The notes beneath the pieces are model-generated. The model was not told the origin of the DNA. It saw only the letters and a list, made by a program, of their open reading frames with translations, and did no database searches. A DNA stretch of 64,000 nt from an uncultured candidatus Porisulfidus sp. (GTDB lineage: Bacteria > Pseudomonadota > Gammaproteobacteria > Poriferisulfidales > Poriferisulfidaceae): NCBI GenBank assembly GCA_965242985.1, contig OZ251520.1, forward strand, positions 860,492 through 924,491. The letters run 5' to 3'. Shown piece by piece: positions 7,531 through 43,007 of the stretch (positions within the stretch are counted from its first letter, which is position 1; each line of letters starts with the position of its first letter). The position numbers and the translations under genes were made by a program.

Positions 7531-10500
7531 TGTACAACAGCGCCAGCGACGTTCCGGACCTGACGTTCGAGGCGCGCAACACCGACGACGACACGGTCGG
7601 CCTGGTGCTGTCGAAGACCTCGGTGATGACCAGCGAGAACACCGCGGACCAAACCGTGAACCGGGACACGTTCACGGTGAAGCTGGGGTCGCAGCCGACG
7701 GCGGACGTGACCGTCGCCCTCATGAGCAGCGACACGGGCGAGGCGACGGTGAGCCCGTCGAGCCTGACGTTCACCATGACGACCTGGGACGCCGCGCAGA
7801 CGGTGACGGTGACCGGCGTGGACGACGCTTTGACGGACACCCCGCAGAACTACACGATCACGCTGAATCCGGCGAGCACGGGCGATACCGCCTACAACGC
7901 CTTGATGAACGTGACGGTGTCGGGGACGAACGCGGACGACGAGGCGCCGACGGCGTCGCTGACGCTGTCGAGCAGCGCGATCGCGGAGAACGGCGGCACG
8001 GCGACGGTGTCGGCGTCGCTGGACAGCGCGTCGACGGCGGCGACCACGGTGACGGTGCAGGCGGCGGCGGGCCTGTACACGGTGGTCGGGGGGAACACGA
8101 TCACGATCGCGGCGAGCGCGACGACCAGCGCGGACCGGGTGACGATCCGGGCGGTGGACGACCGGATCGAGAACAATCCGGCGCGGACGGGGCAGGTGAC
8201 GGCGTCGGTGAGCAACCCTTCGGCGCTGGGGGTGTCGAGCGCCACGGCGACGGCGGCGCTGACGCTGACGGACGACGACATGGCGGGGCTGGCGCTGACG
8301 GGGCTGCAGGCGGCGGACCCGAAAGCGACGCTGGCGGAGAACGGGACGGCGGTGTTCCGGGTGGCGCTGGCGAGCGCGCCGACGGCGGACGTGACGGTGG
8401 CGGCGTCGAGCAGTCCTTCCAGCGCGTGCTTGGTGTCGAAGGCGGGCGACGCGGCGCCGTCGGCGTCGACGACGCTGACGTTCACGTCCGGGAACTGGAG
8501 CGCGGCGCAGGCGGTGACGCTGACCGGCGTGCGCGACAATCTGGCGGCCGGCGGACGGGACTGCGCGGTCACGCTGGCGACGGCGAGCGCCGGCGCGGGC
8601 GGCGATGCGGTGTACCACAGCAACACCGAGGTGCCGGACCAGTCGTTCATGGCGCGGGTCACCGAGGTCGACGCGGTGGGCCTGGCGCTGTCGAAGACGT
8701 CGGTGGCGACCAGCGAGGACGGGACGTCGGACTCGTTCACGGTGGCGCTGCGGACGATCCCGTCGGACGACGTGACGGTGGCGCTCGCGGTCACGGGCGC
8801 CGCGGACGAGGTGATGCTGAGCGCGTCGAGCCTGACGTTCACCGCGACGACCTGGAACGCCGCGCAGACGGTGACGGCGACGGGGCAGGACGACGACGAC
8901 CTGGACCGGGCGCAGAACTATCAGATCGGCTTGTCGACGACCAGCAACGACGGGGATTACAGCGGCCTGACGGCGACGGTGTCGGGGACGAACCAGGACA
9001 ACGAGGCGCCGACGGTGACGCTGGAGCTGTCGCCGGCGTCGGTGGCGGAGGGTGGAACGGCGACGGTGACGGCGAGCTTGGATCGGGCGGTGGAGACGGC
9101 CACGGTGATCACGGTGTCGGCGGCGGCGGGGCCGGGCGCGGCGGGGTCGTTCCGGCTGAGTTCGAACCGGACGCTGACGGTGCCGGCGAATTCGCGCGCC
9201 AGCGAGGGCGAGGTGACCATCGCCGCGGTGGACGACGCGGTCGACGCGCCGGACAAGACGGTGCGGGTGCGGGGCGAGGTCGGCGCGAACGACTTGGGGA
9301 CGCTGGATCCGGCGCCGGTGACGCTGACGATCCGAGGACGACGAGGCGGCGCCGGAGGTGTCGCTGGCGCCGGCGTCGGCGGAGATCTGGGAGAGCGGGG
9401 CGGGGAGCCGGACCGACGGTGTCGGCGCGGCTGAGCCATCCGTCGAGCGCGGAGACGCGGATCACGGTGCGGTCGCTGCCGGGGGTGTACCGGGTGGTGG
9501 GGCTCGCCCCGGTTTCGGCGTCGCGGACGAGCGGCGCGGGCCGGTCGGCCGCGCTTGGAGACGAGGCAGACGGAAGGGGAAGCGGTGATCGTGATTCCGG
9601 CGCTGCGGACGACCAGCGACGACCGGGTGATCATCGAGGCGTTGGACGTGGCCGGCGCGGGGGCGGATCAAGAGGTCGAGATCCGGGCCACGGCGATCAA
9701 CAGCCAGGGCGTGGCGGCGCGGGCGCTCACGGCGGCGCTGACGGTGCTGGACGACGAGACGGCGTCGGCGTCGCTGGTGCTGGCGCCGGCGCGGGTGTCG
9801 GAGGGCGGGACGGCGCGGGTGTCGGCGGAGCTGCGCCGGGCGGTGGGGGCGGCGGTGACCGTGACCATCTCGGCGGCGCCGGGAGAAAACGCCACGGCAG
9901 AGGATTTCAGTTTGGGTTCGGAGCGGGTGCTGACGATCCCGGCGGGGCAGACGATCCAGCACGGGTTCGGCGTCGATCGCGACGCGGGACGACGAGACGG
10001 ACGCGCCGGACCGGACGGTGGCGGTGTCGGCGACGGCGGAGTCGTCGGCGGCGACGCGGACGCCGCAGCCGGCGCATGCTGACGATCGCGGACGACGACG
10101 AGACGCCGCAGGCCGCGTTGATCTTGATGCCGGCGGTGATCGGGCAGCGCGAGCCGAATAACGAGTCGACGGTGACGGCGACGCTGGAGCGGCCGTCGAG
10201 CGAGGCGACGACGATCACGGTGTCGGCGACGGGGACCGGCTTCGAGCAGCGCGGGACGACGCTGACGGTGGCGGCGGGGGCGACGACGAGCGCGGGCACG
10301 GTGAGGCTGATTGCGGAAAACGCCGGGGATCAGGCGCCGGACCGGGAGGTGATCGTGTCGGGGCGGGCGGCGAACGCGCACGCGATCGTGCAGCCGGCGG
10401 ACGCGACGCTGACCATCCGCAGCGGCGCCGGCTCGGAAGTGACGGAAGTGCTGCTGCCGGAGGCGGCGCGGGCGATGGCGGACAGCCGGGCGAGCGCGGT

Positions 10501-11767
10501 GCGGCGGCGGCTGGAAAGCGCGGACGCGGCGGCGGCGTCGGAACTGCCGGCGCTGACGGAGCTGCTGGCGAAGCACGGCCCGTCGGTTCAGGACGACTCG
10601 CTGGACTGGAAGAAGACGCTGGCGGGATCGTCGTTCACGCTGCCGCTGAACGCGGCCGGCGGCGATGCCGGCGGCGGCGGCATCACCGTCTGGGGGAGCG
10701 GGGACTACCGCGACCTGGACGGCGAGGCGCGCGGCGTGAAGTGGGACGGCGACGTGGTCAGCGCGCATCTCGGTCTGGACCGGAAACTGGCGAACGGCCT
10801 GCGGGTCGGCCTGGCGGCGTCGTGGTCGGAGGCGAAGTTCGACTACGACCACCGCGGCCTGACGGGCGAGTGGGAGCTGGAGATGGGCAGCGCGCAGCCG
10901 TACCTGGGCTGGACCACGCCGGGCGGCTTGGAGCTGTGGGCGTCGGCGGGCGCGGGCAGCGGCGAACTGGAGGTGACGGACGGCGGCGCGCGGGACACTT
11001 CGGACGCGGACATGCGGCTGGCGGCGGCCGGGGCGCGGGGGCCGCTGTACGAGACGGCAAGCGGGCTGCGGGTGTCGCTGCGCGGCGAGGCGCTGTATTC
11101 GAGCTTCGAGGTGGACGGCAACGGCGCGCGCATCCCGGGTTACACGGCGGACGTGAGCCGGCTGCGGCTGGCGCTGGAGGCGCGGCGGGACCGCGCGCTG
11201 GCGTCGGGGGCGCGGCTGTCGCCGCGGTTCGAGCTGGGGCTGCGTCACGACGGCGGCGACGGCGAGACCGGCGCGGGAGTGGAGCTGGGCGGCGGCGCGG
11301 AGTACGCGTCGGGCCGGCTGTCGGCGTCGGGCGGGGCGCGGGCGCTGGTGGCGAATTCGGACTACGACGAGTGGGGCGCGGACTTGGCGCTGGCGTACGC
11401 GCCGGGCGCGGACGGGCGGGGCTTCTCGTTCCGGCTGGCGCCGTCGTGGGGCGCGGCGCAGAGCGGCGGGCAGAAATTGTGGGAGCAGGGCGCGCCGGGG
11501 TTGAACGGCGCGGCCGAGGAGCCCGATGCAAGCGCGCGCCTGGAGGCGGAGTTGGGCTACGGGCTGAAGTCGCCGTGGAGCCGCGGGCTGCTGACGCTGA
11601 CGCTGGGCGGCGAGGCGGGCGAGGACGTGGGCGCGGCCTGCCGCCTGAAGGGCGCGGTGGCGCTGGACGCGACGGCGACGCTGGGTCTGGAGCTGGAAGT
11701 GCGCGATCCGCCGTCGGGCGGCGCCGAGCGCAGCCTGATGCTGACCGGCGAACTGCGCTTCTAGGCC

Positions 11768-11800
11768 CGCGCCGCTGTTCAGTGGCGGCTTCATGCTTTT
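11768..11800 (+). terminator. Putative intrinsic terminator after autotransporter gene 1
   Basis: gccgc-tgttcagtg-gcggc hairpin followed by ttcatgcttttt. Confidence 0.4.
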
Positions 11801-11967
11801 TGACCGCCCGCGCGACCGGACGCCGCGGCTGAATCCCGCCGGAAACCGGCCCGTTCGGGCCGATTCCGCGCCGGAGGAGCGCGGCCTGCCGGGGGCGATT
11901 CCAAGCCGTGTTATACTCTGACCCAGACCGCGCCGCCGGCGCGCCGGAAGATCAGGAGGGAATCCCC

Positions 11968-30231: not shown

Positions 30232-30454
30232 GGTATAATCCCGCCCGCTTTCGGACTGCAACCGCTTCAGTCCGCGAAGCGAACTGCGCCGAACTGTCTC
30301 ACTGACATGGAATATCCCGCCGCATCGGCCCTGAATCGCGCCTGCGCCGCGCGTGGTCCTATCGCGCGCAGCCCTAATACGGGGGGGGGGGTCTAAAAGC
30401 CTTTCCGCGCGCCGGACGTCCGGCGCTCCGGCCCGGCCGTCTCGGCCGGAACCG
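30232..30454 (+). promoter_or_regulatory. Leader/promoter module copy C (TATAAT 30234-30239, GC hairpin, G11 tract 30381-30391) upstream of the intact autotransporter
   Basis: Shares tataatcccgcccgctttc, ctgaatcgcg-hairpin, c(c/t)(g/t)aatac-Gn and tccgcgcgccgg blocks with copies A and B. Confidence 0.6.
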
Positions 30455-33400
30455 ATGACCGGCGCGCGTTGCGCGCGCGGGCTGGCGGCGGCGTTGCTGG
30501 CCGCGGCGCTGCTGCCGGCGTCGCCGGCGCAGGCGCAGCACCTCGCCTATCAGGTGACCCTGAGCAAGAGCGTGATCACCGAAGGCGAGTCGGTCACGGT
30601 GGGCCTGAGCTGCACCTCGTATTGCGGCAACAACTTGATAACAACCGGCGGCGCCCAGACGGAGACGACTACCAAGGCGGATATCGCGATCAGTCCCACC
30701 ACTTACAGCAACGTTACGCTGTCCAGCAACGTGCGGCTGACCATGAACTCGAACAATTCGAGCAACCCTTGGGCGGGCACGGTGACGATTTCGACCACGG
30801 TCGACACGGCGGACACCGGGCACAGGACGGTGACGGTATCGGGGACCCAAGACCGCACTGATCCAAACAACGCGTGGGCCGGGGTGGGTACCAGCGCCAT
30901 CACCTCGGCCACGCTGACGATTCTCGACGCCCAGGCGCCGCAGGTGACGGTGTCGCTGTCGCCGGCGACGATCAACGAGAGTGGCGGAACCATAACGACG
31001 GTGGTGCAGGCGACGGTGCCGACGGGCTCCGAGCCGACCACGGCTCTGGCGGTGACGCTGTCGGCGGCGCCGGTGAGTCCGGCGACGTCGGCGGATTTCA
31101 CGACGAGCTGGTCGGGAGCCACGACGACGTTGACGATTCCGGCGAACGGCACCACCAGCGGGCTCGCGTTGATCACGGCGGTGAACAACAACCTGGACGG
31201 CCCGGAGACCAAGCAGGTGACGGTGAGGGGAGCGGTGGCGACGACCGTCGACTACCGGTCCGGCTCCGCGACGCTGACGATCAACGACGACGACATGACG
31301 GACCTGACGGTGGACCACAGCGGCGGTTCGACCACGGTGGCGGAGGGTTCGACGGCGACGGACGATTTCGAGGTGAGCCTGGCGAGCCAGCCGCGGTCGG
31401 TGGTGCAGGTGGCGGTGTCGGTGGTGAATGACTCGGACGGCACCCGCGAGTGCGAGGCGTCGGTGGACGACGGCGCGAACTACATCGCGTCCGGCAGCAC
31501 GGGGACGCTGACGTTCGTGCCGACGGCCGGCGAAATTTCGGGAGCCCAGACGGCCCTGTGGAGCACGGGGCAGAGGGTGAGGGTGCGGAGCGTGGACGAT
31601 GCCGCGGACGACGACGACCAGACATGCACGGTGCGGCTGAACCCGGCCAGCGTGCCGGCCTCGGGCGATACCAGATACCACAATTTGGCCGATGTCGACG
31701 TGTCGGTGACCGTCACCGACAACGACGTGCAGCCGACGCTGGCGCTGACGCCGCCCGCGATCGACGAGAGCGGGATGAACAACCGGGCGACGGTGACGGC
31801 GACGCTGGCGGATCCCGCGGCGTCGCGGGTGACGCTCACGGTGTCGGCGGCGCCGGTGAGTCCGGCGGTGGCGGGCGATTACAGCCTGAGCGGGAGCACG
31901 CTGACGATCGCGTCGGGCGCGACGACCAGCACGGGGACGGTGACGATCACGGCGGTGGACAACGCCGTGGACGCGGCGAACAAGACGGTGACGGTGTCGG
32001 CGACGTCGTCGGGCGGGAACACGGTGGCGCCGGCGGACGCGACGCTGACGATCCGGGACGACGACGGGCCGGGCCTGGACTTGTCGCCGACCGCGCTGTC
32101 GGTGGCCGAGCCCGGGGAGGAGGGCTCGTTCGCGGTGAATCTGGCGTCGCAGCCGACGGCGGCCGTGACGGTGACGGCGTCGCGGCCGGCGGCGGACGGC
32201 ACGGAATGCGAAGTGAAGAGCGGCGCGGGCGCGTACGGCGCCTCGACGACGTTGACGTTCACGGCCTCCACTCCGGCCACCCTGTGGAGCGCGCCGCAAA
32301 CGGTGATGGTGCGGGCCATTGACGACCCCAGCGCTGATGCCGATCAGCCGTGCGATATCACGCTGTCGGTCAGCAGCACGGACACGAACTACAACACGCT
32401 GGGGGATGAGACGGTGTCGGTGACCGTGGTGGACGACGACACGGCGGGATTGACGCTGTCGAAGACCGAAGTGTCGACCAGCGAGGACGTCGCCGACGCG
32501 GCCGCGAACGCGGACGATTTCACGGTGCGCCTGGGGACGCTGCCATCGGCGGTCGTGACGATCGCGATCAGCAGCAGCGACACGGGCGAGGCGGCGGTTT
32601 CTCCAGCGAGCCTGAGGTTCGGGACGGCGGCGGACAACAGCGACCCCGCCAACCCGGTGTTCCTGTGGAGCGATCCGCGGACGGTGACGGTGACGGGCGT
32701 GGACGACAACGACCCGGACGGCTCGCGGGACTACACGATCACGCTGAATCCGAGCAGCACGGGCGACAGCGACTACGACGGCTTGGATGACGTGCTGGTG
32801 TCGGGCACGAACGAGGACGACGACGCAGTGACGGTGACGCTGTCGGTGTCGGCGGCGGACGGGCGGCTCGCGGAGGGCGAATCGGCGGCGGTGACGGCGC
32901 GCCTCGGCCGTTCGGTGGGGGCGGTGACGACGATCCGGGTGTCGGCGGCGGCGGGGACGGGCGCGTCGGCGGCGCACTTCCGGCTGAGCGAGAACCGGAC
33001 GCTGACGGTGGCGGCGGGGTCGACGGCGAGCACGGGGACGGTGACCATCACCGCGGTGGACGACGACGTGGACGGCCCGGAGACCCGGCAGGTGACGGTG
33101 TCGGGGTCGGCGAGCGGCGGCCAGAGGGCGCTGGATCCGGACTCCTTGACGCTGACGATCGCGGACGACGACGCGGCGCCGCGGGCGTCGCTGATCTTGA
33201 CGCCAGCGGCGATCGACGAGAGCGCGCCGGACAACGAGGCGCGGGTGACGGCGGCGCTGAGCCATCCCTCGAGCATGGCGACGACGGTGGCGGTGTCGGC
33301 CGCGGCCGGGGCGACGGTGGGCGCAGACAACGTCCTCTCGATCCCCGCGGGGGCGACGGCGAGCGCGGATGCGGTGACGCTGACGGCGGTGGACGACGAG

Positions 33401-34837
33401 GAGCAGACGCCGGACCGGGAGGTGGCGGTGTCGGGGCGGGCGCGGAACGCGCACGGCGTCGAGCAGCCGGCCGCGGTGACGCTGACCATCCGCGATGACG
33501 ACGGCGCGGAGGCGGTGACGGCGGTGCTGCTGCCGGAGGCGGCGCGGGCGATGGCGGACAGCCGGGCGGGCGCGGTGCGGCGGCGGCTGGAGAGCGCGGA
33601 CGCGGCGGAGGCGTCGGCGCCGCCGGCGCTGATGGCATTGCTGACGGAGCACGGCCCGTCGCTGCAGAAAGACGAACTGGACTGGAAGACGGCGCTGGCG
33701 GGGTCGTCGTTCGCGCTGCCGCTGAACGCGGCCGGCGAGAGCGGCGGCGGCGTGGCCGTGTGGGGAAGCGGCGACTACGCGAACTTGGACGGCGAGGCGC
33801 GCGGGGTGTCGTGGGACGGCGACGTCGTGAGCGCGCATCTCGGCTTGGACCGGAAACTGGCGAACGGTCTGCGCGTCGGCTTGGCGGCGTCGTGGTCGGA
33901 GGCGAAGTTCGACTACCGGCACGAGGGCCGCGAAGGCGAGTGGGAGCTGGAGATGACCAGCGCGCAGCCGTACCTGGGCTGGACGACGCCGGGCGGCTTG
34001 GAGTTGTGGGCCTCGGCGGGCGCGGGCAGCGGCGACCTGGAGATCGCCGCCGGCGGAACGGCGCGGGAGAAATCGGACGCGGACATGTGGCTGGCGGCGG
34101 CCGGGGCGCGGGGGCCGCTGCACGAGACGGAAAGCGGCTTGCAGGTGTCGCTGCGCGGCGAGGCGCTGTATTCGAGTTTCGAGGTGGACGGCAACGACGG
34201 GCGCATCCAGGCCTACACGGCGGACGCCTCAAGGCTGCGGCTGGCGCTGGAGGCGCGGCGGGACCGCGTGCTGGCGTCGGGGGCGCGGCTTTCGCCGCGG
34301 TTCGAGCTGGGGCTGCGGCACGACGGCGGCGACGGCGAGACCGGCGCGGGGGTGGAGCTGGGCGGCGGCGCGGAGTACGCGTCGGGCCGGCTGACGGCAT
34401 CGGGCGGGGCGCGGGTTCTGGCGGCGAATTCGGACTACGACGAGTGGGGCGCGGACTTGGCGCTGGCGTACGCGCCGGGCGCGGACGGGCGGGGCTTCTC
34501 GTTCCGGCTGTCGCCGTCGTGGGGTACTGCGCAGAGCGGCGCGCAAAAACTGTGGGAACAGGGCGCGCCGGGGCTGAGCGGCACTGCGGACGAGGCCGAC
34601 CTCGGCGGCCGCCTGGAGGCGGAGCTGGGCTACGGACTGAAGTCGCCGTGGAGCCGCGGGCTGCTGAGGCTGACGCTGGGCGGCGAAGCGGGCGAGGACG
34701 CGGGCGCGGCCTGCCGCCTGAAAGGCGCGGTGGCGCTGGACGCGACGGCCAGCCTGGGGCTGGAGCTGGAGGTGCGCGACCCGCCGTCGGGCGGCGCCGA
34801 GCGCAGCCTGATGGCGACCGGCGAACTGCGCTTCTAG
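30455..34837 (+). CDS. Giant Calx-beta-repeat autotransporter (intact)
   Basis: Signal peptide MTGARCARGLAAALLAAALLPASPAQA. About 12 Calx-beta-like ~100-aa repeats (…TLTI(R/A)DDD…). C-terminal ~420-aa autotransporter beta-domain (WGSGDY..., terminal F). C-terminal 500 aa ~85% identical to the gene-1 tail. Confidence 0.8.
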   Translation: MTGARCARGLAAALLAAALLPASPAQAQHLAYQVTLSKSVITEGESVTVGLSCTSYCGNNLITTGGAQTETTTKADIAISPTTYSNVTLSSNVRLTMNSNNSSNPWAGTVTISTTVDTADTGHRTVTVSGTQDRTDPNNAWAGVGTSAITSATLTILDAQAPQVTVSLSPATINESGGTITTVVQATVPTGSEPTTALAVTLSAAPVSPATSADFTTSWSGATTTLTIPANGTTSGLALITAVNNNLDGPETKQVTVRGAVATTVDYRSGSATLTINDDDMTDLTVDHSGGSTTVAEGSTATDDFEVSLASQPRSVVQVAVSVVNDSDGTRECEASVDDGANYIASGSTGTLTFVPTAGEISGAQTALWSTGQRVRVRSVDDAADDDDQTCTVRLNPASVPASGDTRYHNLADVDVSVTVTDNDVQPTLALTPPAIDESGMNNRATVTATLADPAASRVTLTVSAAPVSPAVAGDYSLSGSTLTIASGATTSTGTVTITAVDNAVDAANKTVTVSATSSGGNTVAPADATLTIRDDDGPGLDLSPTALSVAEPGEEGSFAVNLASQPTAAVTVTASRPAADGTECEVKSGAGAYGASTTLTFTASTPATLWSAPQTVMVRAIDDPSADADQPCDITLSVSSTDTNYNTLGDETVSVTVVDDDTAGLTLSKTEVSTSEDVADAAANADDFTVRLGTLPSAVVTIAISSSDTGEAAVSPASLRFGTAADNSDPANPVFLWSDPRTVTVTGVDDNDPDGSRDYTITLNPSSTGDSDYDGLDDVLVSGTNEDDDAVTVTLSVSAADGRLAEGESAAVTARLGRSVGAVTTIRVSAAAGTGASAAHFRLSENRTLTVAAGSTASTGTVTITAVDDDVDGPETRQVTVSGSASGGQRALDPDSLTLTIADDDAAPRASLILTPAAIDESAPDNEARVTAALSHPSSMATTVAVSAAAGATVGADNVLSIPAGATASADAVTLTAVDDEEQTPDREVAVSGRARNAHGVEQPAAVTLTIRDDDGAEAVTAVLLPEAARAMADSRAGAVRRRLESADAAEASAPPALMALLTEHGPSLQKDELDWKTALAGSSFALPLNAAGESGGGVAVWGSGDYANLDGEARGVSWDGDVVSAHLGLDRKLANGLRVGLAASWSEAKFDYRHEGREGEWELEMTSAQPYLGWTTPGGLELWASAGAGSGDLEIAAGGTAREKSDADMWLAAAGARGPLHETESGLQVSLRGEALYSSFEVDGNDGRIQAYTADASRLRLALEARRDRVLASGARLSPRFELGLRHDGGDGETGAGVELGGGAEYASGRLTASGGARVLAANSDYDEWGADLALAYAPGADGRGFSFRLSPSWGTAQSGAQKLWEQGAPGLSGTADEADLGGRLEAELGYGLKSPWSRGLLRLTLGGEAGEDAGAACRLKGAVALDATASLGLELEVRDPPSGGAERSLMATGELRF

Positions 34838-34966: not shown

Positions 34967-35042
<76 letters not shown>

Positions 35043-37499: not shown

Positions 37500-37528
37500 G
37501 GACGCCGCCCGCCGCCGGCCGTCCGGTG

Positions 37529-38143
37529 CTAGCGGCGCCCGCCTTCCCGGATCCGCGCCGGCAGGGAAAGGCACTGCCGGGCGCGGTCTTTCCCGATCAG
37601 GGCGAGCGTTTTCTCGTGGTATTCCTCGGGAACTTTCATGCGTCCCAGGCGCAGGGCGTTGTAGACGGCTTGCGCTTGTCCCCCGCGGCCGAGGGCGGTT
37701 TCCGCCTGCCGGCAGGTCAGGATGTCCATCGTGCTCGCCGTCGGCAGGCGCGGGAAGCGTTCCCTGCAGATCCTCAGGCCCTTGCTTTCGTCGATCACCG
37801 CCGCCCCGCCGCGTTCCAGCGCGCAAGCGATGACGGCGGCTTCGCCGTCGTCTAAGGATCTTTCGGTCAGGTCGTTGAAGTGCCGCAGGCCGATTTCTCT
37901 CAAGGCCGCGACTGCGAGCATTCCCCGTTTCGTCCAAGCGGGAAAATCGCTGGCGCGCACTGCGCCCTTTTCTTGTCCCACCTCGAATTCCTGCAGCACC
38001 TCTTCGACGATCATGAGGATGCCCGGCAACGCCGCCAGAAGTTCCTCGAAGCTTCCCGTCGCGCAGAGATTGATGAGGACGCTGGTGTCGACGACCAGCG
38101 GCCCCGCGAAGTCAGGCAGCGAGTTCCAGCGCGTCATCCGCAT
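37529..38143 (-). CDS. PIN-domain protein (putative toxin/RNase)
   Basis: LVVDTSVLINL N-terminal PIN motif. 32-nt overlap with the upstream XRE/ImmA gene. Confidence 0.6.
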   Translation of the reverse strand: MRMTRWNSLPDFAGPLVVDTSVLINLCATGSFEELLAALPGILMIVEEVLQEFEVGQEKGAVRASDFPAWTKRGMLAVAALREIGLRHFNDLTERSLDDGEAAVIACALERGGAAVIDESKGLRICRERFPRLPTASTMDILTCRQAETALGRGGQAQAVYNALRLGRMKVPEEYHEKTLALIGKDRARQCLSLPARIREGGRR

Positions 38144-39287
38144 CCCCTCGTTCGGCTTCCATGCCGATCAGCATGTCGCGCAATTCGATGCGCTTGAGGT
38201 TCAGCAGGCGCGCCAGTTGCCCCTCGCTCAGTAGTTCTTTCTCCCACGCCTCCAGCGCCATCAATCCGAGGCGCAACGGAACGATGCGGTCCGCGTCCGT
38301 CTTGATCGCGTTCTCCGCAGCAAGGTCATTGGCAATTTCCCGAGCCGGTTCGCTGCCGCCGCTGGCGCTTTCCGTGAACCACTTCCAAGTGCCGACCGGG
38401 GCCAGCGAAAGTTCTTCGAGCTGCAGCGCCATCGCTTCCGGCGGCACGCCGAATTCGCTCGCCAGCAGCGCGACATGCTGTCGCGTGAGTTTCGACATCC
38501 CTGCTACGGTCTGGCGGAACTGGCGTTCCATCGCCCGCAGCGGCATCAGGAAAGTCTTGGCGAACGCGTCGGCGTAGCGTCCCGGCCGCGAAGCGTCGCG
38601 GCCGTTCCGGTACAGCACGTCCGGCTGCCGCCGGTTCGACACGAAATGCCCCAGTTCGCGGGCGCAGGCGAACGCGCGCCGGTCCGGCGGGTGGTTCGCG
38701 TTCAGGAGCAGGCAGCCGCCGACCCGTTCGCGGTAGGCGAACAGCCCGGACAGCCGGGTGTCGATCCGCCGCGTATGGACGCGCATGCCGAATTCCAGTT
38801 TCAGAACGGCTTCCGGGTCGCGCACCGGCGCCATGCCGAGGCCCAGCCGCTGCCGGAGCTCGGTGGCATCTTCCGCGGCTTGGGCGCGCACGTCCGCGCC
38901 GGCCAACAGCGGCCGTTCCGGCGGCGCGCTGTGCGCGTGCTCGATGCCCAGCACGTTCTCCAGTTCCGCTTCCGCCTGCACCAGCACCGTCAGCAGTTTG
39001 GCCGCTTCGTGCGCTTGGCGGTCCCGGGGCGCGTGCCGACGGAACTCGGAGATCAGGTCGACATGCACCGCTTCGGCGCGTCGCAGAGCGTTGACCGATG
39101 TCTGGTACAGCCGCGCCAATTGCTGGAGTTCCGCCAGTTGGATGCGGCGCCGGCCCTGTTCAATGGCGACCAGGGTCGTGCGCGCGACCCGGATGCGGGC
39201 CGCCGCGTCCGCCTGCGTGATTTGCTCCGCTTCCCGGGCGCAGCGCAGCCGGGCGCCGAGCTCCTCGGGGGTGATGGGGGAATGCAT
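38112..39287 (-). CDS. XRE-family HTH + ImmA/IrrE-type zinc metallopeptidase fusion protein
   Basis: N-terminal HTH (LRCAREAEQITQADAAARIRVARTTLVAIEQGRR), central HEXXH-like ARELGHFV (DUF955/ImmA). Start taken at MHSPIT; the ORF track extends further upstream to 39491. Confidence 0.6.
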   Translation of the reverse strand: MHSPITPEELGARLRCAREAEQITQADAAARIRVARTTLVAIEQGRRRIQLAELQQLARLYQTSVNALRRAEAVHVDLISEFRRHAPRDRQAHEAAKLLTVLVQAEAELENVLGIEHAHSAPPERPLLAGADVRAQAAEDATELRQRLGLGMAPVRDPEAVLKLEFGMRVHTRRIDTRLSGLFAYRERVGGCLLLNANHPPDRRAFACARELGHFVSNRRQPDVLYRNGRDASRPGRYADAFAKTFLMPLRAMERQFRQTVAGMSKLTRQHVALLASEFGVPPEAMALQLEELSLAPVGTWKWFTESASGGSEPAREIANDLAAENAIKTDADRIVPLRLGLMALEAWEKELLSEGQLARLLNLKRIELRDMLIGMEAERGDADDALELAA

Positions 39288-39489
39288 GCGCGGTCCCTTG
39301 CAGTTGATGTCAGGATAGATGCAGGAAGAATCATAACATGTTGGAAAAACGCGGGTATCAGGGAAACCGCCGCAGTACGCCGAGTGTTCCGCATCCTCGC
39401 GGCGGCGCGTCATGTCGGAGTCCTGCGGAGTCTGATCCCGCGGCAGCTGGTATGCTGGAATCCCATCCTCGGAGACCACGCGGAAGAGC

Positions 39490-39984
39490 ATGTCCGTCTA
39501 TTTCGTGCGGGCCAAATCCGGCCGGCTGTTTTCGGCGTTCATGGAGCGGGGCGTCGTCGCGCTGGGCGGACTTACCGATGCGCCCGACATCGGCGACCTG
39601 CGGCGGCACCTGGATAGCCGCGAGGCTTTGTGCGCGCGCGTCCGGGAATGGAGTCCGAATCGAGGGAAGCGCGAGACGAACTACACGACCCGGGTCCTGT
39701 GGCTGCTGGCGGGGGAAATGCAGGTCGGAGACTGGGCGCTGACGTACGACGGGCAGGGTTCCTACGCGCTCGGCGCAGTCACCGGCGAGTACCGGTATGA
39801 GCCGGCATGGGATGAAGAGCCGTTGCGCCACCCGCATGCGCGGGACGTGGCTTGGCGGGAGGAGCGGATTCCGCGGGCGGCGCTGTCGTCGCAGACGCAA
39901 CAGGAGCTGAGTCGGCACGATTCCATCATCGGGCTGAACTACGCGGCGAGCCGCGAGGTCTTGGAGCGGGCGGGCGCGGCCTGA
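39490..39984 (+). CDS. Hypothetical protein (164 aa), divergent from the ImmA-like gene
   Basis: ORF with no family assignable by eye (MSVYFVRAKSGRLFSAFMERGVVALGG...). Confidence 0.35.
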   Translation: MSVYFVRAKSGRLFSAFMERGVVALGGLTDAPDIGDLRRHLDSREALCARVREWSPNRGKRETNYTTRVLWLLAGEMQVGDWALTYDGQGSYALGAVTGEYRYEPAWDEEPLRHPHARDVAWREERIPRAALSSQTQQELSRHDSIIGLNYAASREVLERAGAA

Positions 39985-40017
39985 TCCCCGGCGGCGGCGT
40001 CCCAGTCCGTTCGCTGG

Positions 40018-40056
40018 TATGATGAATGCCGGAAGCGGGCCGGACAGCCGCCGCCT
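40018..40056 (+). repeat. Direct repeat, left copy (duplicated rnpB promoter/5' end, attL-like)
   Basis: gtatgatgaatgccggaagcgggccggacagccgccgcct. Its counterpart at 42009-42047 is ctatgatgcctgccggaagcgggccggacagccgccgcct. Confidence 0.65.
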
Positions 40057-40227
40057 TGGAAGTTGGCCGCAATGGAAAGCGTAAAGCCGGGGTGTTCCAG
40101 ATGTCTGCTTTTTCGCGTCCGGGGAAAACAATTCATTTTGGAGTCTCGAACTGAGGATCTGCTCAAGAATTTCAGTGTGAAATCTGAATTGCCTGATGGG
40201 AAAACCTCTTCCCATCAATAGCATTAG

Positions 40228-41247
40228 ATGACGAAGACGATTCTCAATGCTATGAGTGAGAGCAGCCAGAAAGCTTTGTTTCCTGCCCCTAGCAAGGAAG
40301 GAGCGGAAAGTGGCGACGTGCAAAGTGAAGACGAGTTCGGTGGCTTGTGGACGGAAGTCAAGTTGGATATCGTGGAGAAGTACTTGAAAGCGTATACGAC
40401 TGCTCTGAAGTGGAGGCCACGCCGGGATCGGCCTTTCAAACTTCTGTATATCGATGCTTTTGCAGGGTCAGGATGGATCGTGCAAGACGATCCGGACAAT
40501 CCGGGAGCAAAACGCTTGATTTCTGGTTCAGCGGATCGTGCTGCGCAGGTAGACGACAAACCCTTCGATAGGTTGATCTTTGTTGAAAAAAACCCCCGCC
40601 GGTGTGGGAAACTGGAAGATATCAGAGCCAGATACCACCATCATCGGAATATAGAGATATATCAGGATGATGCAAACTTGTTCTTGAAAAACTTGCGGGA
40701 AGATTGGCGCAATTGTCGTGGTGTGTTATTTCTTGATCCATATGCTGTGGAGGTCGAGTGGTCCACGATAGAGAAGATTGCTGGATACCGCGCTCTTGAC
40801 GTTTGGATTCTTTTTCCTATTCATGCAGTTGTGCGAATGCTGAATCGAGACCAGATGCCGGAGGAGCATTTGAGAGAAAAACTTACGCAATTCTTTGGTA
40901 ATAAAAGTTGGGAGCGTCTCTACCAATTGGCCTATCAGTATGTTCTTTTGGGAGAAGAAGATATTCAAGAAATAGTCTATAGAGAACAAGGCGTTGATGC
41001 GTTAATAAACGTATACCGTGATAATTTAAGAAATCTGTTTGGGCCCAGACTTTTGGAACAATCCAAGAGGTTGGGTAGTTCGAGCAACCCACACTTATTT
41101 GAACTTTTCTTTTGTGCTGGCAGTCTAAGTGAGAGGGCAATAAGAGCCTCGTTTACAATTGCGCGCCATCTTATCAATACTATTGGTAATGGGAATCAAC
41201 CTGCGCGGGATCGTGTTTCTGCAACGATGGATTTGCTGAGCCAATAG
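40228..41247 (+). CDS. TcmP-like (three-Cys-motif partner) protein with Rossmann/methyltransferase-like D-x-F-x-G-x-G motif
   Basis: [12 protein letters not shown] motif. Low-GC gene (~47%). Sits immediately upstream of a Gp37/Gp68 gene, as is characteristic for TcmP. Confidence 0.5.
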
Positions 41248-41269
41248 AATAACTGCCCGGATTATCGCT

Positions 41270-41989
41270 ATGTCTACCGTTTCTAGCATCGAATGGACGG
41301 ATGTCACTTGGAACCCGGTGACGGGTTGTACGAAGGTTAGTCACGGCTGCAGACACTGTTACGCGGAACAGATGGCCCGTCGGTTGCGGGCCATGGGAGT
41401 GGAGAAGTACCGTAACGGGTTTGCGGTGACGGAGCATCCCGAGGTGCTTCGTGATCCGCTGACTTGGCGTAAGCCGCGTTTGGTATTCGTTAACTCCATG
41501 TCGGATTTGTTCCACGAGTCTGTTTCTACTAGTTTCATCGAGGAGGTGTTCCGCGTGATGAACCAAGCGTCTCGGCACACATTCCAGGTCTTGACCAAGC
41601 GGCCGGAGCGGGTTGTGGATTTGAATCGCCAGTTGCGCTGGACCTCCAACATTTGGTTGGGTACGTCGATCGAATCGGAGCGTTGGATAGATCGCTTGAC
41701 ATTGCTGAGGCGGATCGACGCTCACACGAAATTCCTGTCGCTGGAGCCGTTGCTTGGGCCGCTATCGAGCCTAGACCTGAGGGGCGTGGACTGGGTGATT
41801 GTCGGTGGAGAATCGGGTCCGGGGGCGCGTCCGATGGAGGCAGACTGGGCGCGTGAGATCCGCGATCAGTGCCTTGCTGCAGATGTGCCATTCTTCTTCA
41901 AGCAGTGGGGAGGTGTGGTCAAGAAGCGGTCCGGCCGCGAATTAGACGGGAGGACTTGGGATCAACAGCCGGCGTTCGCGGGTGCCTAG
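41270..41989 (+). CDS. Phage Gp37/Gp68 family protein (DUF5131, three-Cys motif)
   Basis: [27 protein letters not shown] (C-x6-C-x2-C), ...WLGTSIE..., FFKQWGG are typical of PF07505. Confidence 0.6.
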
Positions 41990-42008
41990 AATGCGTGCTC
42001 TTGGAGTC

Positions 42009-42047
42009 TGATGCTATGATGCCTGCCGGAAGCGGGCCGGACAGCCG
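42009..42047 (+). repeat. Direct repeat, right copy (native rnpB promoter/5' end, attR-like)
   Basis: See 40018-40056. Confidence 0.65.
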
Positions 42048-42365
42048 CCGCCTGCGGGCGGAGGAAAGTCCGGGCTCCACAGGGCGGGATGCCAGGCAAC
42101 ACCTGGGGGGCGCGAGCCCACGGCCAGTGCCACAGAAAACATACCGCCGGGCGCAGGCCCGGTAAGGGTGAAAAGGTGCGGTAAGAGCGCACCGCGCGGC
42201 TGGCAACAGGCGCGGCAGGGTAAACCCCATCCGGAGCAAGACCCAATAGGGGGGCGATCGCGTGGCCCGCGCGGCTCCCGGGTAGGTCGCTAGAGCGGGG
42301 CGGCGACGTCCCGCCCAGATGAATGGCTGTCCTCGACAGAACCCGGCTTACAGGCCCGCTTCCCC
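42028..42365 (+). ncRNA. rnpB: RNase P RNA, bacterial type A
   Basis: Collinear with E. coli M1 RNA: gaagc.ggacag..gccgc, GGAGGAAAGTCCGGGCTCCA, GGTAAGGGTGAAA..GTGCGGTAAGAGCGCACC, ACAGAACCCGGCTTA. Confidence 0.85.
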
Positions 42366-42480
42366 TCGCCCCGGCAGTGGAGATTTCCTCCGCCCCCGTC
42401 CGGCTCCGGAATCCGAACTTTCTATAAATATGATTATATAACATATAAATAACTGGAATACATAAGAGGTTGTTTAGTGT

Positions 42481-42556
42481 ATTGATTTTTTAAAAAAGTG
42501 GTATAAAATGGCGGCCTGTGGAAATTTGTGGCACAAGGTGCCGCAGGGGACGCCGC
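42481..42556 (+). promoter_or_regulatory. Pmra promoter (TTGATT-N17-TATAAA) with downstream GTGG repeats resembling an MraZ operator
   Basis: attgattttttaaaaaagtggtataaaatgg followed by GTGG...GTGG...GTGG. Lies in a 25%-GC block. Confidence 0.55.
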
Positions 42557-42557
42557 C

Positions 42558-43007
42558 TTGTACCGGGGATCCTGTTTGCTCACGGTGGACGACAAGGGCC
42601 GCATCGCGGTGCCGACCCGATTCCGCGATCTGATCCAGAAGGAGTGCAAGGGCCGCATGGTGGCGACCATGTATTTCGAGCGCGGAGTCGGCATCTTCCC
42701 CTGGCCGGCCTGGAAGCAGCTCGAGCTGAACTTGCAGAAGATGTCCGACGCCCGGCCGGCGGAGCGCGCGCTGCGCGAGATGCTGCTCGGCCACGCCGAA
42801 GACCGGCAGCTCGACAGCCAGGGCCGGCTGCTGCTGGCGCAGGCGCTGCGCCGGCACGCGGGGATCGAGCGCGAGGCGCAGCTGATCGGGCAGGGCGACA
42901 AGCTGGTGCTGTGGTCGCGCTCGGTGGCGGAGCGGCGCTTCGAACAGTGGGACCAAGCCTTCGCCGAACCCGACCTGTCCGGGACGCTCGGCAACATCAC
43001 GCTCTGA
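42558..43007 (+). CDS. mraZ: Transcriptional regulator MraZ
   Basis: LYRGSCLLTVDDKGRIAVPTRFR aligns to the E. coli [23 protein letters not shown]. A TTG start is proposed at 42558; the ORF track starts at GTG 42528. Confidence 0.8.
   Translation: MYRGSCLLTVDDKGRIAVPTRFRDLIQKECKGRMVATMYFERGVGIFPWPAWKQLELNLQKMSDARPAERALREMLLGHAEDRQLDSQGRLLLAQALRRHAGIEREAQLIGQGDKLVLWSRSVAERRFEQWDQAFAEPDLSGTLGNITL

Follow-up and report, generated by a model that had tools for sequence, protein, structure and literature searches.

The stretch of DNA analyzed here, 64,000 nucleotides in all (the window), contains between ychF and rnpB a region crowded with accessory genes. Nearest to ychF is block A (37502 to 39997, 67% GC), a separate and older accessory block that precedes the native rnpB promoter and whose gene content varies among relatives; on the basis of family matches, it encodes a PIN-like DUF3368 protein (37529-38143, minus strand), an HTH_XRE plus Peptidase_M78 protein (38112-39491, minus strand) and a DUF8426 protein (39490-39984, plus strand). 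The remaining features are all on the plus strand. A left repeat (40015 to 40056) is followed by an untranslated leader (40057 to 40227) with 82.5% identity to the corresponding sequence of L001, a contig from a sister lineage. Next come tcmP (40228 to 41247) and, beginning 22 nt 3' of it on the same strand, a DUF5131 (Gp37/Gp68) gene (41270 to 41989). An island-specific spacer of 22 nt (41990 to 42011), differing from the 12-nt spacer of L001, leads from the DUF5131 stop codon to the right repeat (42012 to 42053), which overlaps the functional gene for a bacterial class A RNase P RNA, rnpB (42029 to 42366; RF00010, 311.3 bits, full length, model positions 1-367). The database copy of TcmP (P0001) starts at 40252 and has 331 residues.

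An accessory island at rnpB

The unique part of the island (40057-42011) is 50.4% GC, with a minimum of 0.40 in 300-nt windows, against 73.8% for the whole window and 73-77% for the flanks. The initial annotation of this locus gave about 47% and about 70% for island and surroundings, and while those figures need correction, the foreign composition it described is confirmed. The island locus is the sole stretch below 60% GC in the window, where one 500-nt window at 5001 reaches 0.63. The GC3 values of the two island genes are 0.46 and 0.70, compared with 0.96 for the core genes, and their dN/dS ratios are 0.19 and 0.08; both genes are, judging from these ratios, under purifying selection.

Relatives for comparison were obtained through protein look-ups. 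Neither the MraZ protein nor a pattern of the rnpB promoter and 5' end gave a match in the genome collection, and the same pattern was absent from JGI metagenomes; these collections do not contain the lineage. The closest named relatives of the YchF protein are 66% identical (Inmirania, Thioalkalivibrio). Among the relatives examined, only the window and L001/L002 have the tcmP/DUF5131 pair at rnpB. Five related contigs (L004, L012, L014, L015 and L016) have an rnpB site without the pair, which identifies the pair as accessory DNA and bears out the earlier proposal of foreign DNA at the 5' end of rnpB. The gene order is ychF-rnpB-mraZ in L004 and L014 and DUF8426-rnpB in L015 and L016, while the HTH/M78 gene is present in L012 and L017. 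These contents differ among genomes that are 92-99% identical in ychF. The ychF-rnpB spacer is a variable accessory-gene hotspot, with the tcmP and DUF5131 cassette as its rightmost occupant. Block A has PADLOC matches of its own (PDC-S70, RmrA/CapP-like and PDC-S02-like). None of the five open reading frames between ychF and rnpB (37529-41989) matches a recombinase family, in agreement with the initial annotation.

We considered the possibility that no insertion took place at all, the two genes being either ancestral residents of the locus or the product of a chimeric assembly. The same genes do occupy an identical site in two lineages, but the island is present in three independent assemblies (the window, L001 and L002) and is therefore no assembly artefact. 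Ancestral residence must contend with the five relatives that lack the pair at an otherwise colinear locus, with a GC content of 50% against 74%, and with TcmP homologues that come from unrelated contexts, the closest other one being 51% identical. We regard this explanation as very improbable, and the empty sites and the composition are our grounds for rejecting it.

Origin of the direct repeat

The two copies of the direct repeat (40015-40056 and 42012-42053) are 42 nt long, agree at 39 of 42 positions and are spaced 1997 nt apart. Inside them is an exact core of 29 nt (40028-40056 and 42025-42053), which occurs twice in the window; none of 100 shuffles gave two matches. A repeat of about 38 bp had been noted at 40018-40056 and 42009-42047, and it is real, although longer than proposed and with its second copy some 6 nt farther right. 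No third, degenerate copy that might mark a boundary of block A was found in the window at up to three mismatches. Since the RF00010 match begins at 42029, the repeat takes in an extended -10 box (TGnTATGAT), a spacer and the initial 25 nt of rnpB. In its left copy the promoter allele is that of the island-free site of L004 (TGGTATGAT), where the upstream flank is also identical, and the right copy, on the working gene, has a different allele (TGCTATGAT). The right copy had been taken for the genuine promoter and start of rnpB; it does form the start of the working gene, but the native allele is on the left, so the roles of the two copies are reversed.

A consensus promoter scan did not call either repeat promoter, as neither has a -35 box. 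No plus strand terminator was predicted in the leader (40057-40227), and the upstream promoter could consequently read into tcmP and DUF5131; the left repeat promoter is predicted to drive both genes.

Within the window alone, an exact 29-nt core with differing arms has exactly the appearance of attL and attR, and the repeat had been described as a classic att duplication. Comparison with the sister lineage does not bear that description out. In L001, positions 9504-9723 (220 nt) align to positions 1-367 of RF00010 (73.5 bits, E 6e-21), and the left copy in L001/L002 is a decayed, internally deleted duplicate of the whole of rnpB. This pseudo-rnpB includes a 152-nt stretch, 94% identical to the intact copy, that begins 20 nt 5' of rnpB, and a 3' relic, colinear with the intact gene at about 62% identity, that extends about 20 nt beyond the gene end. 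The 3' relic on its own had no match to the Rfam covariance models at E <= 10; its origin from rnpB is supported by the full-length covariance model alignment and by a shuffle test, in which its alignment score of 36 (shuffles, 19.2 +/- 2.7) was attained by 1 of 1000 shuffles. The window lacks 287 nt of the L001 left copy (L001 9530-9816), and the 42-nt repeat is thus the deletion stump of an rnpB duplicate. We also considered a role for the pseudo-rnpB as a functional mini-RNase P or regulatory RNA, and rejected it: the universally conserved P4 strand has uncompensated G-to-A and C-to-T changes (CCGGGC to CCAAGC), and the sequence is deleted in the window.

The left boundary of the duplication falls between -17 and -20 in each of the two lineages, which argues for a single origin of the architecture. 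On balance, we lean toward the explanation that the cassette was placed between tandem rnpB copies in one old event, after which the upstream copy decayed, and that the pair is a SAM-dependent module. The originating event is reconstructed from the two island-bearing lineages. The duplicated unit would have begun near -20, immediately before the extended -10 box, and ended some 20 nt beyond the 3' end of the gene. If a circular DNA that carried the cassette and a copy of rnpB had integrated by one homologous (Campbell-type) crossover, such a product would be expected with no need for an integrase; neither a circular form nor a donor of the cassette was seen in the sequences examined. The redundant upstream copy would then have decayed, L001 retaining 220 nt of it, and a further 287-nt deletion in the window would have spared just the promoter and the gene's initial 25 nt; paired with the beginning of the working gene, this stump would make up the 42-nt repeat. 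The retained upstream promoter would be positioned to transcribe tcmP and DUF5131, with the downstream promoter copy serving rnpB. Island-free relatives may never have been occupied or may have lost the cassette, a loss that could come about when the long repeats recombine with each other or when the flanking DNA serves for homologous replacement.

A competing explanation sees the cassette as a miniature site-specific integrative element, or as what is left of a larger one, inserted by integrase-mediated recombination at the core of about 29 nt in the 5' end of rnpB, with the element supplying a replacement promoter and 5' end and the integrase acting in trans or since lost. Besides the resemblance of the core and its diverged arms to attL and attR, the restored target, the clean empty sites and the right promoter allele, which differs from both the left allele and the L004 empty site, are all as such an element would leave them. 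The ychF-rnpB interval, however, has no recombinase, and there is no second low-GC stretch in the window. L001 has a whole-gene pseudo-rnpB where a short attL is expected, with the window as its deletion derivative. The L001 left copy also matches the allele of its island-free sister L015, upstream flank included, and since both L001 copies bear this native allele, the duplicated sequence would be the host's own and not a mimic carried in by an element. Nor does the pair seem to be directed to rnpB in general: flanking repeats of a comparable kind are absent at L005-L007, neither rnpB at the gathering threshold nor any other relevant RNA gene was found near the pair in L005-L009, and more than 40 other TcmP-DUF5131 loci show no link to rnpB. 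The earlier remark that rnpB is an unusual integration target holds to the extent that we found no precedent for it in the searchable literature. We consider integrase-mediated insertion unlikely.

The amount of divergence suggests another possibility, namely that the island alleles of the window and L001 were acquired separately, or were re-imported from distant relatives by homologous recombination in the flanks (ychF or block A on one side, rnpB-mraZ on the other), the cassette being a passively exchanged hotspot allele. The island dS between the window and L001 is 0.57-0.65, 5-6 times the core dS of 0.08-0.12, and divergence is highest beside the island and drops with distance (77.6% identity in the rnpB-mraZ spacer, dS 0.18 in mraZ, about 0.10 in rsmH and ftsI). 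L004 and the window are 98.9% identical in ychF but 94.8% across rnpB-mraZ, and island-bearing and island-free genomes interleave in the ychF identity matrix. Over all genes, however, dS climbs as GC3 drops, so that the low core dS may reflect constraint on GC3. The rnpB-mraZ spacer, native and AT-rich, has diverged as much as the island itself, and we therefore did not treat dS as decisive in dating the island against the core. The common duplication boundary would still demand a single origin of the architecture, and separate import concerns the spread of the cassette and not its origin, which makes it compatible with insertion between tandem rnpB copies. As an account of the two alleles, we find it doubtful.

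Apart from the history of this island, the locus carries a caution for island-calling: what looks like a short att repeat at an RNA gene may turn out to be the worn-down end of a duplicated gene, revealed here only by comparison with a sister lineage. It also indicates that rnpB, an essential ribozyme gene, tolerates a swap of its promoter-proximal context.

The TcmP-DUF5131 pair

The family assignments made previously for both proteins held up in profile searches, well above the respective cut-offs. TcmP matches TIGR04474 (three-Cys-motif partner protein) at 153.5 bits over profile positions 2-253 of 263, where the cut-off is 53 bits, and the DUF5131 protein matches PF07505 at 339.7 bits over profile positions 2-243 of 243, where the gathering threshold is 28.9 bits, as well as PHROG 2045 at 333.7 bits. 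TcmP had no Pfam sequence match, and neither protein significantly matched a solved structure in sequence searches of the PDB; hits of the island proteins to the MOC1 resolvase and alpha-haemolysin (E 0.04-0.8) were dismissed as noise. Both families are large, with at least 3,267 matches for TcmP and at least 8,000 for DUF5131. The DUF5131 protein is highly conserved, the best 120 of its matches being 71-77% identical.

The predicted TcmP model has the Rossmann-like seven-strand fold of class I SAM-dependent methyltransferases, most like that of RlmJ. The IDAFAGSG motif and the cysteine cluster to which the initial annotation drew attention both fall in invariant columns of the homologue alignments. 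In TcmP these are Y66, D68-A69-F70-A71-G72 and G74 (YxDAFAGxG, motif I-like); at the position of motif IV, L161-D162-P163 is also invariant and is followed by F or Y, so that the second proline is absent and the motif is DP(F/Y), not DPPY. In DUF5131 all three cysteines of C20-X6-C27-X2-C30 are invariant, in a variant arrangement that does not match the canonical radical SAM CX3CX2C. The DUF5131 model is nevertheless a radical-SAM barrel, a partial TIM-barrel with a GGE SAM-binding motif (G179-G180-E181), and its nearest fold is spore photoproduct lyase (SPL). The family has been placed in the radical SAM superfamily, beside the SPL cluster (PMC9477430).

That the pair is recurrent had been suggested before, and we agree: DUF5131 adjoins TcmP in 38 of 39 viral loci and in all of the bacterial and plasmid loci inspected, including L001, L002, L005-L009 and L011. 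In L010, the TcmP neighbor is annotated simply as "radical SAM protein." TcmP and DUF5131 thus appear to form an obligately linked, two-enzyme SAM-dependent module. By its profile matches to the PDC-M41 A and B models (240.7 bits, E 7.7e-72, and 384.4 bits, E 4.3e-116), the pair is already catalogued in PADLOC as the candidate phage-defence system PDC-M41 (also PDC-M30). Neighbors at other TcmP-DUF5131 loci include DNA methyltransferases, BREX genes and toxin-antitoxin genes. We found no experimental test of phage protection by PDC-M41 or PDC-M30 in the literature, and for DUF5131, TcmP, PDC-M41/M30 and Gp37Gp68 nothing beyond mentions in database listings.

Taken together, the family and PADLOC matches, the predicted folds, the invariant motifs, the linkage, the defence-gene neighbors elsewhere and the radical SAM listing point to a defence or modification role, the likeliest being that the pair covalently modifies nucleic acid as part of phage defence or of a counter-defence. 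A role in nucleic-acid modification had been suggested for this locus previously, and a SAM-dependent function would be consistent with the folds predicted here. A bolder proposal, which we offer as speculation and think improbable as a whole, is that the pair is a new immune or anti-immune module in which an SPL-like radical-SAM enzyme and an RlmJ-like partner act jointly on DNA or RNA, and which has in this lineage spread without a recombinase, using a captured rnpB promoter and 5' end both as a homology arm to guide RecA-dependent insertion and as a source of strong, constitutive expression. The pair is widespread, tightly linked and strongly constrained, and radical-SAM chemistry with a methyltransferase-fold partner could reveal a new nucleic-acid modification; the locus described here offers a minimal, stand-alone example, and the predicted promoter would probably express it constitutively.

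Comparison with known systems

RlmJ/YhiR, class I SAM-dependent N6-adenine RNA methyltransferases, resemble the TcmP model in fold, but identity is just 16-17%, TcmP lacks the second proline of their motif IV, and TcmP alone bears an added C-terminal alpha/beta region and is always paired with DUF5131. SPL is a DNA-repair enzyme. With other small radical-SAM enzymes (RadicalSAM.org Megacluster 5) it is the closest fold to the DUF5131 model, yet the two share 13% sequence identity, SPL has CX3CX2C where DUF5131 has CX6CX2C, and SPL, unlike DUF5131, does not need a TcmP partner. A restriction-modification system requires a nuclease and a DNA methyltransferase; profile searches detected no nuclease domain in the two-gene cassette, and DNA methyltransferase genes occur only at other loci. 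An accompanying methyltransferase or nuclease gene is present at L006, L007 and L011, in contrast to the window. The genes of PDC-M41 are adjacent and co-directional, as here, and in the window they sit among other defence-like genes, those of block A; PDC-M41 and PDC-M30 are computational candidates.

As for the architecture, islands that target tRNA and tmRNA genes, and their integrase-less derivatives (CIME-type remnants), resemble the window island in that they occupy an essential gene for a small structured RNA, are flanked by direct repeats of one end of that gene, leave it functional and have empty sites in close relatives. They differ in the target, which is rnpB here, and in duplicating the 3' end of the gene where the window repeat is of the 5' end; the window repeat moreover derives from a whole-gene duplicate, and the window island has no integrase. 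Of the features that define a site-specific integrative island, the window island has an unoccupied site in relatives, while an integrase is lacking and the repeats are not limited to a crossover core. The products of Campbell-type single crossovers, as made by suicide plasmids, have two direct homologous copies around the insert, as here, and are able to recombine the insert out; the likeness is an inferred one, and at this locus one of the copies has decayed and been partly deleted.

Direct repeats at rnpB in two lineages

The RNase P RNA gene of the window (rnpB, class A, 42029-42366, + strand) matches RF00010 at full length with 311 bits. A 42-nt direct repeat at 40015-40056 and 42012-42053 (39 of 42 positions identical, spacing 1997) spans, as read from the sequence, from the TG of an extended -10 box (TGnTATGAT) to rnpB nucleotide 25; the promoter it contains is not called by a consensus promoter scan because it has no -35 box. 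The window has two occurrences of the 29-nt exact core and no third; none of 100 shuffles contained two matches. The initial annotation recognized both copies, with the second set about 6 nt too far left, at 42009-42047. The unique DNA between the copies (40057-42011) has 50.4% GC, against 73.8% for the whole window, and the locus is the only stretch of the window below 60% GC, one 500-nt window at 5001 falling to 0.63. Genes are ordered tRNA-Ala, rplY, pth, ychF, an accessory block (block A), left repeat, tcmP, DUF5131, rnpB, mraZ, rsmH, ftsL, ftsI, murE, murF. That no integrase is present, as had been noticed earlier, is borne out by family searches, in which none of the five accessory ORFs of block A and the island matched a recombinase.

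Taken alone, the window agrees with insertion at rnpB by an integrase, leaving an att duplication. That model does not fit the sister lineage. The database holds one other close TcmP allele (80% identity; the next best homologue has 51%), located on L001, a 46-kb metagenome scaffold in which rplY through ftsI, with block A and both island genes among them, follow the same order as in the window; a 2.2-kb contig, L002, is identical to it across the full L002 length. The left repeat of L001 (9504-9723) matches positions 1-367 of the RNase P model (73.5 bits, E 6e-21), large internal segments being deleted. From 20 nt upstream of rnpB, a 152-nt stretch shares 94% identity with the intact copy (11750-11901); similarity then drops abruptly, to be followed by a colinear relic, about 62% identical, of the rnpB 3' end. 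This relic, which corresponds to the region of the P4 and P1 3' strands and extends about 20 nt beyond the gene end, is too weak for the covariance model when searched alone, and its local alignment score is 36, where dinucleotide shuffles gave 19.2 +/- 2.7 and one in 1000 of them reached 36. Most of the changes that set the left copy apart are G-to-A or C-to-T, and the universally conserved P4 strand CCGGGC has become CCAAGC without compensation; the left copy is an rnpB pseudogene.

The alignment of the window with L001 jumps from 40057 (L001 9529) to 40060 (L001 9817), so the window lacks 287 nt that are present in L001. The window's 42-nt repeat thus looks like the remnant of a duplicated rnpB after a 287-nt deletion, and the "classic att duplication" of the initial annotation is not supported; we consider the integrase model an unlikely rival.

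The ychF-rnpB spacer in relatives

Seven further loci were reached through close YchF homologues together with a MraZ cluster member. Between ychF and mraZ, L004 (ychF 98.9% identical to the window over 538 nt) and L014 (YchF 88% identical in protein to the window's) have rnpB only; L016 (88%) has DUF8426 and rnpB; L015 (92%) has a 283-aa ORF, DUF8426 and rnpB; and L012 (93%) has HTH/M78, a DUF8426 3' relic and rnpB. L017 (98%) has HTH/M78 and rnpB, its contig ending at rnpB +151. The L013 locus (89%) is rearranged, and neither rnpB nor mraZ lies near it; Calx-beta-repeat giants, interrupted by an rve transposase gene, directly follow ychF, and at about 10640-10670, also downstream of ychF, there is a perfect C13-AATAA-G11 hairpin-like tract. 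The tcmP-DUF5131 pair is found at this locus only in the window and L001/L002, which makes the pair accessory and marks the ychF-rnpB spacer as a variable hotspot. Comparison with empty sites in related genomes, suggested previously, upholds the island as an addition, the pair being absent from L004, L012, L014, L015 and L016.

L004 and the window's left copy have the promoter allele cgcTGGTATGATGAATGCCG in common, upstream flank included, so it is the left copy that agrees with an island-free site; the right copy had been taken for the genuine promoter. The right copy carries TGCTATGATGCCTGCCG; with ccgggccgg upstream, this allele is the native promoter of L015, the island-free sister of L001 (97.3% in ychF). 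In L001 the TGCTATGATGCCTGCCG allele with upstream ccgggccgg stands at both copies, and L001 therefore displays a true duplication of its own sequence. In both island-bearing lineages the left boundary of the duplication lies at -17 to -20, a shared position that argues for a single originating event.

A further and older accessory block, block A (37502-39997, 67% GC), separates ychF from the native rnpB promoter and comprises a PIN-like DUF3368 gene (PADLOC PDC-S70), an HTH_XRE + Peptidase_M78 gene (RmrA/CapP-like in PADLOC) and DUF8426, whose match to PDC-S02 models is confined to their N-terminal ~137 residues. Relatives have none of these, DUF8426 only, HTH/M78 only, or all three, so the spacer behaves as a defence-gene hotspot. 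A GC-rich inverted repeat brackets the block (GGACGCCGCCCGCCGCCGG at 37501-37519 on the left, CCGGCGGCGGCGTCC at 39986-40000 on the right), and the empty site of L004 has a short hairpin, GGGGCG-GATCT-CGTCCC, after the ychF stop codon; it looks as if block A was inserted into the loop of a putative ychF terminator. The HTH/M78 gene (38112-39491, - strand) has a longest ORF of 459 aa, and its orthologues in L001, L012 and L017 have 390-391 aa; the first ~68 codons, which overlap the DUF8426 start on the opposite strand, are probably untranslated. Elsewhere in the window, a 1494-aa ORF (30353-34837) has repeated Thr/Ala/Asp-rich units and a C-terminal region that by eye resembles an autotransporter beta-domain. 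ARAGORN calls two tRNA-Gly genes (4820-4890 and 63657-63752, one of them 96 nt long), which may be false positives or atypical genes; Rfam at gathering threshold gives only tRNA-Ala at 34967-35039.

Between the window and L001, core genes have dS of 0.08-0.12 (mraZ 0.18), dN/dS of 0.39-0.52 and GC3 of 0.91-0.97; the corresponding values are 0.28-0.46, 0.34-0.39 and 0.79-0.86 for block A, 0.57, 0.19 and 0.46 for TcmP, and 0.65, 0.08 and 0.70-0.74 for DUF5131. The 5-6-fold excess of dS in the island over the core could reflect separate histories. Since dS climbs steadily with falling GC3, and the native AT-rich rnpB-mraZ spacer (42367-42527) diverges from L001 as much as the island leader does (77.6% and 82.5% identity), island and core may instead have co-diverged since a common ancestor. 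Divergence is raised beside the island and lower with distance, and L004 and the window are 98.9% identical in ychF and 94.8% across rnpB-mraZ, as would be expected if hotspot alleles were exchanged by homologous recombination. In mraZ (42528-43007), dS and dN are both roughly double those of neighbouring core genes, and core levels return in rsmH and ftsI.

The tcmP-DUF5131 pair

The co-directional genes tcmP (40228-41247) and DUF5131 (41270-41989) score 153.5 bits with TIGR04474 (cut-off 53) and 339.7 bits with PF07505 (cut-off 28.9), in keeping with the families first assigned to them; a Pfam search gave no match for TcmP. In PADLOC the two proteins match the A (240.7 bits) and B (384.4 bits) models of the candidate defence system PDC-M41, and DUF5131 also matches PDC-M30B. 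The pair belongs to the already catalogued families TIGR04474, PF07505 and PDC-M41; a literature search found no experimental work on it. Both genes are intact in the window and L001, and their dN/dS (0.19 for TcmP, 0.08 for DUF5131) places them under purifying selection.

TcmP is predicted to have a class I SAM methyltransferase fold (pLDDT 82.9, pTM 0.81), with Y66, D68-A69-F70-A71-G72 and G74 invariant at the motif I site after strand 1, and L161-D162-P163, followed by F or Y, invariant at the motif IV site after strand 4. The second proline of DPPY is absent, which leaves it uncertain whether TcmP is catalytically competent. The DUF5131 model (pLDDT 80.5) is a predicted radical-SAM-type barrel in which C20, C27 and C30 (CX6CX2C) and G179-G180-E181 are invariant; DUF5131 is Megacluster 5-2 in RadicalSAM.org, adjoining the SPL cluster (PMC9477430).

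Linkage of the two genes is nearly universal: DUF5131 adjoins TcmP in 38 of the 39 TcmP loci of viral contigs, and also at six bacterial or plasmid loci (L005-L009 and L011); at L010 the neighbour is annotated merely as "radical SAM protein". Large N6_N4 or class I DNA methyltransferases share an operon with the pair at L006, L007 and L011, and further neighbours include toxin-antitoxin pairs (at L006) and BREX genes (at L010). Of 50,697 phage records, 179 contain DUF5131, at times adjoining a DNA methyltransferase; TcmP is present in 5 phage records and 12 of 72,556 plasmid records. None of the other TcmP-DUF5131 loci examined has rnpB near the pair, so the rnpB location is not inherent in the pair. 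Judged by fold, motifs and neighbourhood, the best functional reading of the pair would be a two-enzyme SAM-dependent nucleic-acid modification module in phage-host conflict.

Most pairs in the viral contigs (L018-L056) are convergent, their 3' ends overlapping, and many viral pairs sit a few kb or less from the contig end; the window's subfamily and L006-L009 instead have both genes in one direction, with almost no gap. Upstream of the pair in L006, two copies of the leader and 5' region of an N6_N4 DNA methyltransferase gene stand 4.2 kb apart with 93-98% identity (1154-1453 and 5319-5618, also 1-262 and 4385-4645), which could be a cassette-swapping or phase-variable methyltransferase arrangement.

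Origin of the architecture

The most likely origin is a single homologous crossover by a circular molecule carrying an rnpB segment, which would leave two direct copies of the whole segment flanking foreign DNA and would need no integrase. That a surviving insertion must give rnpB a promoter would explain why the duplicated unit starts immediately to the left of the minimal promoter. No terminator is predicted between the upstream promoter copy and tcmP, towards which it points, so the cassette is probably expressed from an rnpB promoter. Loss of the island by recombination between the 152-nt repeats would restore a clean single rnpB, as in L015, and the window's repeat, now just 29 nt exact, should stabilise the island.

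The insertion architecture is unusual and instructive, and the puzzle of an att site without an integrase largely dissolves; the pair already figures among defence candidates, and its function is testable. In outcome the island resembles those of the tRNA/tmRNA type, since the target is an RNA gene that stays preserved, repeats flank the insert and empty sites exist, but it differs in their defining features, as there is no integrase here and the repeats exceed a crossover core.
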